Assembly (NCBI GenBank): GCA_021771185.1
Contig: JAETPN010000002.1
Span: 69,297-133,296, forward strand
Reading direction: 5' to 3'
DNA: 64,000 nt
DNA from: Bacillota bacterium
GTDB taxonomy: Bacteria; Bacillota_I; Bacilli_A; RF39; UBA660
The translations under genes and the position numbers were made by a program. Shown in pieces: positions 7,201 to 8,240 of this stretch. Every line of letters begins with the position of its first letter. The first letter of the stretch is position 1. The notes below the pieces were generated by a model. The model was not told the origin of the DNA. It did no database searches and worked only from the letters and a program-made list of their open reading frames with translations.

Positions 7201-8109
7201 TTAATCACATACTTTCTTAAATTCACTAAATTTTATTAAATTATTAAATACATCGTGATACTCATTTGTATAATTTTCCGTCATACTATTATCAAAGAGA
7301 TCAATATATTTAATAAAATCATCTACCCTATCCAAATTCAAAAATGAAGTAGTAGGGGAAGTCAAATTTTGACTATAAAGATAACGTCGTTTACCAAAAA
7401 GACGATTGTCAATATCCTTAGTCATATATTTACTGATATATCCAACAATATTGATGTCGCGTAGGGGAAACACTGATGAAAAACCATGAATCCAACCATA
7501 AACATCATACATTGTAGTTTTTCCATTTTGTGGTATAATAAGATTGATTTCATTTATATCAATGTTCGTCAAGAGATGGTAATGAACTGATCCCCTCTTT
7601 TGAAATTCCGGAACACATATATACTTGAAATCTTTTTTTATGCGTTTCATACGAGTACGCCAAGAATTAAACTTTTTATTAGCTTCTGATATATCTACAA
7701 CGTTATCTTTAAATGTTAATGTTATAAATGTTTTAAATTCTGCTTCATTACACTTTACCAAACGTTGTAATGAAATTTTACTTCTTATAATATTCTTCTC
7801 TTCAATTTTAGTAACCACTTCCCTACCCTTCATATTAACAGTTTTATTTATTAAAACATCAGTAGTTAAATTACTATCTTTCATTTTTTCTAGCTTTTTT
7901 TCATGATGTGAAGAATATTTATAAATGTGATAATAATCACCACATTTAATTAATTTTAAATTATATTTAATCGTAGGAGTTTGAGATATGAGACTACTAT
8001 CAAGTAATAGAGCGGCCGGGCGTTTCACGCCGTATCGGCCGAACTTATACTCATGATATTCTCGTTCAATTAAAGAACTATCTTTAATTTTAGTTGATGA
8101 ATGAGCCAC
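7201..8109 (-). CDS. rolling-circle replication initiation protein (phage Rep, HUH endonuclease)
   Basis: motifs FITLTF (I), HYHLL (II), YISKYMTKD (III, catalytic Tyr). Confidence 0.75.
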   Translation of the reverse strand: MAHSSTKIKDSSLIEREYHEYKFGRYGVKRPAALLLDSSLISQTPTIKYNLKLIKCGDYYHIYKYSSHHEKKLEKMKDSNLTTDVLINKTVNMKGREVVTKIEEKNIIRSKISLQRLVKCNEAEFKTFITLTFKDNVVDISEANKKFNSWRTRMKRIKKDFKYICVPEFQKRGSVHYHLLTNIDINEINLIIPQNGKTTMYDVYGWIHGFSSVFPLRDINIVGYISKYMTKDIDNRLFGKRRYLYSQNLTSPTTSFLNLDRVDDFIKYIDLFDNSMTENYTNEYHDVFNNLIKFSEFKKVCD

Positions 8110-8240
8110 GGAGCTATGCTCCTATAATAGGGGATACTCCCCTATTTACCCCTGTGCTTCGCATGTTAATAAATAACCCCATGCATAGCAACATCAACGT
8201 TGAGGTGACTGGGGCTCCGACACAGACGTCGGATCCCCCC
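8110..8240. promoter_or_regulatory. GC-rich hairpin cluster, candidate phage (+) origin / nick site
   Basis: ggagc-tat-gctcc (8110-8122), agggga-tac-tcccct (8129-8143), GGGGct-CCGAC-acagac-GTCGG-at-CCCC (8211-8238); GC content far above surroundings, between Zot-like gene and rep. Confidence 0.4.

Follow-up and report, generated by a model that had tools for sequence, protein, structure and literature searches.

A GC-rich stretch at positions 8010-8240 of a 64,000-nucleotide (nt) segment of a Bacillota bacterium genome (NCBI GenBank assembly GCA_021771185.1, contig JAETPN010000002.1, positions 69,297 to 133,296), referred to here as the window and numbered from its first letter, is part of an integrated inovirus-like prophage and lies between the gene for a Zot-like morphogenesis ATPase and rep, the gene for a rolling-circle replication initiator. 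This stretch is probably best explained as the cis-acting replication region of the prophage, arranged in a layout like that of the Ff filamentous phages. An initial annotation had proposed a rolling-circle origin here, with nicking by Rep in the loops of its hairpins. The region and the type of element stand, whereas the nick site and the emphasis on the hairpins do not: the nick site is likely, on sequence evidence, to be the 12-mer TACTTGATAGTA (TACTTG^ATAGTA), which lies on the minus strand at 8006-7995 inside rep, 4-15 nt outside the flagged interval, with the predicted cut (G8001/A8000) 9 nt outside it.

Related loci were collected by peptide-pattern searches with Rep, using search peptides that exclude the motif and the hairpin 4 region, and comprise 46 loci from gut metagenome-assembled genomes labelled Bacilli or Tenericutes, plus 2 IMG/VR contigs, with Rep proteins 35-56% identical. 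A closer relative, termed below the 80% relative, consists of two overlapping Logan contigs from different runs (L061 and L058), in which Zot and Rep are about 80% identical and coding DNA is 78-79% identical to the window. An exact 17-mer scan of IMG/VR returned 7 contigs, three of them with a rep-like context (L001, L002, and L053), and the remaining four look like chance matches.

The candidate nick site inside rep

Comparison by blastn of the 500 nt around the finding revealed a single block of high nucleotide identity, at about 7984-8031 of the window, which rises to 100% over 29 nt even where Rep identity is only 40%. The 12-mer within it has a single occurrence in the 64-kb window and an exact counterpart in 45 of the 46 loci with the Rep N-terminus; it stands in frame in rep at every locus, encoding L-D-S-x-L-I. 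Its codons are invariant (CTT, GAT, and AGT in 45/45 each, CTC in 40/40), compared with 4-6 codons, mostly TTA, at the other invariant leucine and serine columns of the same Rep alignment, and such invariance at synonymous sites indicates selection on the DNA itself. Constraint beyond the protein is likewise seen in the 80% relative, where the nick module around the 12-mer is unchanged (32/32 nt) against 79% identity in the rest of rep.

The strand bearing rep carries the nick core CTTG^ATA at this position, and ACTTGATA inside the 12-mer is the 8-mer of the phiX174 cut site. The initial annotation had suggested comparing the hairpin loops with known nick sites; the match to the phiX174/pC194 core proved to sit in the 12-mer inside rep. 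The predicted cut is placed between G8001 and A8000 of the minus strand because of this core and of Rep motifs like those of phiX174. At several loci, among them L016 (GAGACTACTA-CTTGA-TAGTAGTCTC), a perfect hairpin presents the motif in its loop. In the literature searched, the motif did not turn up as text in any relevant context.

The 12-mer could instead be kept for a reason other than nicking, as a Rep operator in autoregulation, as a translational signal, or through a strict need for the peptide LLDSSLI, and its in-frame position at every locus and conserved peptide would agree with such a role. This alternative is nevertheless unlikely: selection on the peptide cannot fix the rare codons CTT and CTC in 45 lineages when the genome prefers TTA, ACTTGATA equals a mapped cut site in phiX174 and the catalytic motifs of Rep resemble those of gpA, and the perfect-hairpin loop seen in L016 and elsewhere is a classic HUH substrate.

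The N-terminal part of rep encodes DSSLI twice, as KDSSLIE at an A/T-only hairpin (8066-8091, minus strand) and as LLDSSLIS at the nick motif (7985-8012, minus strand), with GATAGT common to both; the upstream copy may have arisen by duplication of the nick region and since degenerated, or the likeness may be coincidental. That copy also holds GTTCTTTAAT (8072-8081, minus strand), a 10/11 match to the Ff pII nick site GTTCTTT^AATA (PMC11962056), which was rejected as a nick site and regarded as a chance match, being present in 1 of 49 loci, namely this window.

The Rep protein

Rep matches Pfam PF23343 (8.7e-19) and PHROG 3419, 'rolling circle DNA replication initiation' (7e-28); hmmscan at E <= 0.01 reports PF23343, RepSA, and one minor match only, and PDB and NCBIfam gave no matches. 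The HUH metal-binding motif is present as SVHYHLL, with both histidines invariant in 45 homologues, and the two-tyrosine motif Y-x-x-K-Y is present in GYISKYMTKD, whose Y, K, and Y are invariant in 45/45 and for which a catalytic role is predicted. As judged from its motifs, Rep works like phiX174 gpA, and it is not filed here as a member of the gpA family. About 1,000 Rep homologues exist at E <= 1e-40. A phage database yielded two short weak matches only at the DNA level and distant Reps only at the protein level; CTTGATA is absent from the coding strand in three of those distant inoviruses, which indicates that the nick motif is clade-specific.

The hairpin beside the nick site

Hairpin 4, which the initial annotation had rightly located inside the 5' end of rep, covers codons 22-33 and stands directly 5' of the 12-mer, so that it is tied to the nick site. 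Most loci have a hairpin directly 5' of the nick motif. In 28/46 loci the 48 nt at this place fold better than any 48-nt window in the remaining rep (medians of -7.1 vs -1.7 kcal/mol), and the sequences involved diverge widely among loci. Among 13 loci with a GTGAAAC loop, the inner stem has 3 pairs with 7 cells changed on both sides, a covariation score reached by 0/500 shuffles; one covarying pair combines a synonymous glycine change with a His-to-Arg change. The less conserved hairpin of the 80% relative (24/33 identical) can, as read by eye from its sequence, re-pair in another register, CCGGGC-ATGAAAC-GCCCGG. Hairpin 4 is a probable Rep-positioning or extrusion element of the (+) origin.

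A further outer stem, GAGACTAC/GTAGTCTC, encloses the nick module in 19/46 loci, a significant result, with four compensated variants, GAGCCTAC/GTAGGCTC, GTGCTTAC/GTAAGCAC, GAGCTTA/TAAGCTC, and AGGTTAC/GTAACCT. As a claim for the window it was dropped, since just 5 bp are formed there.

The hairpin cluster between the Zot-like gene and rep

All four hairpins of the initial annotation were found where it had placed them (Table 1), together with a fifth, A/T-only hairpin at 8068-8089 that it had not listed, and the striking GC richness that it described was borne out, at 0.425-0.465 in 8001-8300 vs 0.29 for the window. The fold prediction that it had recommended also supports structure: the predicted folding energy of the 251-nt segment 8000-8250 is -52.2 kcal/mol (minus strand) and -51.0 kcal/mol (plus strand), with shuffles averaging about -25 to -27 (z = -6.9, both strands). 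Folded individually as single-stranded DNA of the minus strand against 200 dinucleotide shuffles each, every hairpin has a z of -3.1 to -4.9, and 0/200 shuffles fold as well. The packaged (viral) strand, predicted to be the minus strand because the genes lie on it, folds more stably in 45/49 loci, but a rep-internal control has an equal bias.

The stretch does lie between the Zot-like gene and rep, as had been described, with the qualification that only 8110-8193 is intergenic and that hairpin 3 falls within the Zot-like gene. Similarly, the reported pyrimidine-rich loops exist on the plus strand of the window, whereas on the predicted viral strand the loops of hairpins 1-3 read ATA, GTA, and GTCTGT. 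A viral-strand hairpin cluster between the morphogenesis genes and rep corresponds to the Ff-type layout.

The initially proposed nicking by Rep in the small loops (TAT, TAC, or ACAGAC) of hairpins 1-3 is very improbable. HUH enzymes often cut in hairpin loops (PMC5714925), and these hairpins do exist and are retained in the closest relative; against this, the three loop sequences are those of the non-coding strand, hairpins 1 and 2 are missing from L012 and L062 despite the same Rep family, the loop of hairpin 1 differs in the 80% relative, and no loop sequence is common to the 46 loci, unlike the invariant 12-mer in rep.

Conservation of the cluster takes several forms, and relatives do retain structure at this place. 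Hairpins 2 and 3 are unchanged in the 80% relative, and the single change in hairpin 1 lies in its loop. The stop codon of the Walker-A gene is overlapped or immediately followed by a strong hairpin (-9 to -18 kcal/mol per 40 nt) in 18 of 19 loci, and these genes encode tail peptides with no relation to one another. Hairpin 3 persists in L012 and L062, where a compensatory change replaces GAC/GTC by GGC/GCC; a further compensatory change, CAAC/GTTG to CCAC/GTGG, distinguishes L063 and L064 from each other. Hairpins 1 and 2 are confined to particular lineages, and hairpins of the form ATAGGGG...CCCCTAT, with other loops, stand upstream of rep in L002, L019, and L033.

These observations bear on whether the GC-rich stretch might be a by-product without cis function, produced by coding constraint on the Zot tail and the Rep N-terminus or by a foreign insert. 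Hairpins 3 and 4 do lie in coding sequence, of zot and rep respectively, but the non-coding segment 8110-8146 is 36/37 identical in a relative with 78-79% coding identity, the hairpin persists while Zot tail peptides differ among loci, and compensatory substitutions are present, leaving this explanation hardly credible. A purely coding or compositional cause was accordingly rejected, including the possibility, raised in the initial annotation, that the stretch is merely the C-terminal coding tail of the Zot-like gene under selection. Rfam and tRNA scans of the whole window gave no match, for which reason a known RNA or a tRNA-derived att site was rejected as well; an att site at the GC island was also discarded, as the att-like repeats sit elsewhere.

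By analogy, hairpins 1-3 most likely act as a packaging signal and/or minus-strand origin, candidate roles that derive from the Ff intergenic region and from the usual place of a single-strand origin just upstream of the nick. Hairpin 1, which has the rep Shine-Dalgarno sequence, AGGAG (8123-8119), as its 5' arm and a 3' arm adjoining the GTG start, may also damp rep translation.

A rival reading extends this last point and assigns hairpins 1-3 mainly to the RNA level, with only hairpin 4 and the 12-mer belonging to the origin: between the morphogenesis operon and rep, hairpins 3 and 2 would work as an attenuator or would stabilise the 3' end of the mRNA, and hairpin 1 would sequester the rep Shine-Dalgarno sequence and keep Rep synthesis low. 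It draws on the pairing of AGGAG with the bases that immediately precede the GTG start, the restriction of the sole hairpin 1 change in the 80% relative to the loop, the T-run of the post-zot hairpin in some relatives (e.g., L010), and the location of the operon's single strong promoter-like site far upstream, at 13070-13042. Conversely, a scan of 8000-8260 found no terminator-like and no strong promoter-like site, hairpins 2 and 3 are without T-tracts, and hairpin 3 is part of the zot coding sequence, ahead of its stop codon. In addition, any phage with a single-stranded DNA genome must carry both a minus-strand origin and a packaging signal, and in the prophage parts examined no second hairpin cluster of this kind was noticed. 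The RNA-level reading retains appreciable weight, and it is clearly the less probable of the two; the replication-region reading is preferred.

The plasmid motif CS-6 (TAGCGT/A), which ssoA-type single-strand origins of Gram-positive plasmids carry in a hairpin loop upstream of the nick, is absent from the window. It occurs in 3/49 loci, with 5 occurrences in all, at 0.36 per kb upstream vs 0.15 per kb background. Clustered CS-6-like repeats (TAGCGT/TAGCGA) between zot and rep were observed in L002 (around 5740-5790) and L019. Such repeats hint at an ssoA-like minus-strand origin in part of the family, in contrast to the window. A distinct class of hairpin, with the conserved loop GCATTGGC/GCAATGGC, lies 90-180 nt 5' of the nick motif in L028, L039, L042, and L045; its stems covary (e.g., TTGCGTGTTGCATTGGCACACGCAA), and within a sub-clade it is found repeatedly behind the ATPase gene.

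Proposed mechanism and points against it

In the mechanism proposed, Rep, an HUH enzyme with a Y-x-x-K-Y motif, would nick the viral strand between G8001 and A8000, inside its own gene, and hairpin 4, directly 5' of the site, would position Rep or help to make the site accessible. The viral strand would be displaced as DNA is synthesised from the 3'-OH, and Rep would close the circle on the return to the site. Hairpins 1-3, just upstream of the nick, would be the last to be displaced and would most likely supply the single-strand functions, with hairpin 1 also enclosing the ribosome-binding site of rep. Cleavage, the exact cut, and the role of each hairpin are predictions, based on conservation, covariation, motif identity, and the catalytic motifs of Rep.

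Several points weigh against this reading. The cut position is derived by analogy with phiX174 and pC194, and the predicted fold of the window itself has the nick site base-paired rather than in a loop. L008 carries at 7356-7369 a variant, TACTCGATAGCA, with two synonymous changes in the 12-mer, which is either a genuine variant origin or a mark of a decaying prophage. Part of the conservation could be at the protein level, the peptide L-D-S-x-L-I being conserved, and this does not explain the invariant synonymous sites. Rep has no match to Pfam Phage_GPA (PF05840) or Rep_1 (PF01446) by hmmscan at the above threshold, and the outer stem is weak in the window (ATGAG/CTCAT). Finally, the evidence on hairpins 1-3 would fit DNA-level and RNA-level roles alike, and their roles are inferred.

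The prophage and its surroundings

The inovirus-like prophage, of about 6.5 kb, lies on the minus strand at about 6994-13494 and is bounded by dif-like repeats. These form the 27-nt direct repeat D10 (6999-7025 and 13468-13494, 96% identical), which encloses about 6.47 kb. The sequence at the rep-side end, ACTTCGTATAATCTATATTATGTTAACT, resembles the Bacillus dif site and the arms of loxP. This 28-mer is found just past rep in 17 related loci (those named being L002, L003, L006, L007, L009-L012, L019, L028, L033, L037, L039, L040, L042, and L044). There it coincides with the rep stop or follows it closely, and its distance from the nick motif, on the 3' side, is 0.8-1.4 kb, rising to as much as 2.2 kb in two loci. 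Among the prophage open reading frames (ORFs), none was noticed to encode an integrase. The dif-like flanks, the lack of a noticed integrase, and the recurrence of the 28-mer together suggest, at the level of sequence, a family-wide Xer-mediated integration at dif in the style of integrative mobile elements exploiting Xer (IMEX). Between about 6000 and 64000 the GC skew is negative throughout, and 1-6000 has mixed or positive values; given this sign switch near 4000-7000, the window probably spans the host replication terminus, in agreement with a dif site at about 7000.

Table 1. Positions of the predicted replication elements, genes, and prophage ends in the window, with nucleotide identity to the 80% relative; dG in kcal/mol
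Feature	Position	Strand	Description	Identity in 80% relative
Nick-site module of predicted (+) origin	7981..8012	-	CTCTATTACTTG^ATAGTAGTCTCATATCTCAA; invariant 12-mer at 8006-7995	32/32
Hairpin 4	8013..8045 (palindrome 8013-8041/45)	-	bulged GC (CGGCCG..GGCGT-GAA-ACGCC CGGCCG); rep codons 22-33; dG -12.4	24/33
Fifth hairpin	8068..8089	-	A/T-only, AATTAAAGA-TAGT-TCTTTAATT; inside rep 5' end; dG -5.7, z -4.2	
Hairpin 1	8110..8123 (stem-loop 8110-8122)	-	GGAGC-ATA-GCTCC; DNA dG -4.2	12/13 (single change in loop)
Hairpin 2	8126..8146	-	AATAGGGGA-GTA-TCCCCTATT; 9 bp; intergenic; dG -7.7	21/21
Spacer between hairpins 3 and 2				57/64
Hairpin 3	8211..8238	-	GGGG-a-TCCGACG-TCTG-TGTCGGA-g-CCCC; last 15 codons of Zot-like gene; dG -12.1	28/28
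rep	7201..8109	-	HUH rolling-circle initiator, 302 aa, GTG start; motifs CVPEFQKRGSVHYH, GYISKYMTKD	
Zot-like (pI-type) morphogenesis ATPase gene	8194..9075	-	Walker A GEQGSGKT; PHROG 197 'Zot-like toxin' 9.5e-6	
dif-like site, rep-side prophage end	6994..7025	-	minus strand 7021..6994 = ACTTCGTATAATCTATATTATGTTAACT	
Second, partial dif-like copy, far prophage end	13468..13494	-	direct repeat D10	

The gene order on the minus strand comprises small ORFs, a coat-like protein of 56 amino acids (aa), proteins of 603 and 109 aa, the Walker-A ATPase, and the 302-aa Rep. The strong promoter-like site mentioned above is divergent from a helix-turn-helix (HTH) repressor gene. PF05707 is found on some homologues of the Zot-like protein, for which NCBIfam returned nothing. 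A further copy of the 56-aa coat-like protein sequence forms the C-terminus of a 190-aa ORF (87-88% identical; direct repeats D2 and D4), and the 190-aa and 603-aa ORFs share a signal-peptide region at their N-termini (D1, 78%); these repeats (11193-11765 vs 12040-12210, and 11048-11181 vs 11622-11755) are internal duplications among structural genes. Tandem 20-mers, AAAAAGGAATAGGGGAAGTG and AAAGAAAAATAGGGGAAGTG, lie just outside the prophage at 13798-13839, with a weaker copy at 7344-7363 in rep, and the 20-mers and the rep copy (repeat D6) share the core ATAGGGGA with hairpin 2. The host-side neighbour at 15199-16308 (minus strand) encodes a QueC-like queuosine biosynthesis protein (PHROG 1741, 5.8e-124) and, being beyond the prophage bounds, is probably chromosomal.

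The window, with a GC content of 29%, reads well in the standard bacterial code. A code with TGA as tryptophan was rejected, as table 4 barely lengthens the ORFs, the invariant tryptophan of Rep is TGG in 45/45, and the TGA stop of zot is kept in the 80% relative. A 6,647-nt Logan contig with an identical Rep was considered as a circle and rejected, since it is colinear with the integrated form (window 13732-7086).

Implications

It can be suggested tentatively, and with less than even confidence, that one large clade of filamentous phages from uncultured gut Bacilli and 'Tenericutes' shares an invariant phiX174-type core within the first 10-40 codons of rep, one site serving Reps that are 35-56% identical, and that the Zot-tail hairpin is a packaging or minus-strand signal. 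If so, all these Reps would recognise a single site and co-resident phages or satellites could cross-replicate, while the hairpin signal would be encoded in a disordered C-terminus. The analysis provides a concrete candidate origin for widespread uncultured gut filamentous phages, with a cut predicted at the nucleotide level, a flanking hairpin, and candidates for single-strand signals. The invariant 12-25-mer could help to find and orient such prophages, and the origin module together with Rep could serve as a minimal replicon for bacteria without genetic tools. For annotation, the case serves as a warning that an HUH nick site can hide in the coding sequence of rep and that intergenic hairpins are not the default answer. 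A large inovirus survey catalogues Rep families and contains no occurrence of 'origin of replication' (PMC6813254).

Comparison with known systems

The mechanism is of the classical phiX174/pC194 type, and nothing conceptually new is claimed for it. The phiX174 origin likewise has an ACTTG^ATA core inside the gene of its own initiator, its record annotating the viral-strand origin at the A of CAACTTG|ATATTAATAAC inside gene A, and a conserved block extending about 15-20 nt 3' of the cut is common to both. In gpA and in the Rep of the window, the HUH motif is preceded by CVPE[YF] and a Y-x-x-K-Y-x-x-K motif is present, so that the gpA motifs CVPEY..GRLHFH (LHFHAV), CVPEYGTANGRLHFH, and GFYVAKYVNK resemble CVPEFQKRGSVHYH and GYISKYMTKD; pairwise similarity of the two proteins is limited to the HUH block (E = 4e-4, one comparison). 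The differences are that phiX174 is a lytic icosahedral phage (Microviridae) with a 30-nt origin, whereas the element described here is a filamentous, Zot-encoding, dif-integrating prophage, that the nick site lies 33-38 codons into rep rather than 108 codons, and that a GC hairpin flanks the site.

In plasmids pC194 and pUB110, the Rep differs from that of the window, which is without PF01446 and has two tyrosines, and CS-6 is not shared by the window. RepA of pC194 uses Tyr plus Glu. Common features are the low-GC Gram-positive hosts, the hairpins upstream of the nick in the normal place of a single-strand origin, and the sequence CTTG^ATA, the conserved nick site of pC194-type Rep_1 origins (PMC10378824). 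With respect to integration rather than to the origin, CTXphi-type IMEX, filamentous phages that host Xer recombinases integrate at dif, are similar in their flanks (here a dif-like 28-mer and a partial copy), in the lack of a noticed integrase, and in the GC-skew switch, whereas the hosts here are uncultured gut Bacilli and 'Tenericutes' and the dependence on Xer is putative.

The intergenic region of Ff phages (M13, f1, and fd) holds the packaging signal, the (-) origin, and the (+) origin (PMC11962056). Its viral-strand hairpins lie, as here, between the last morphogenesis gene and the replication gene, which in Ff are gene IV and gene II; unlike in Ff, part of the hairpin cluster overlaps coding sequence in the present prophage, and where the Ff nick site sits in an intergenic hairpin, the conserved site here is phiX-like and lies inside rep.

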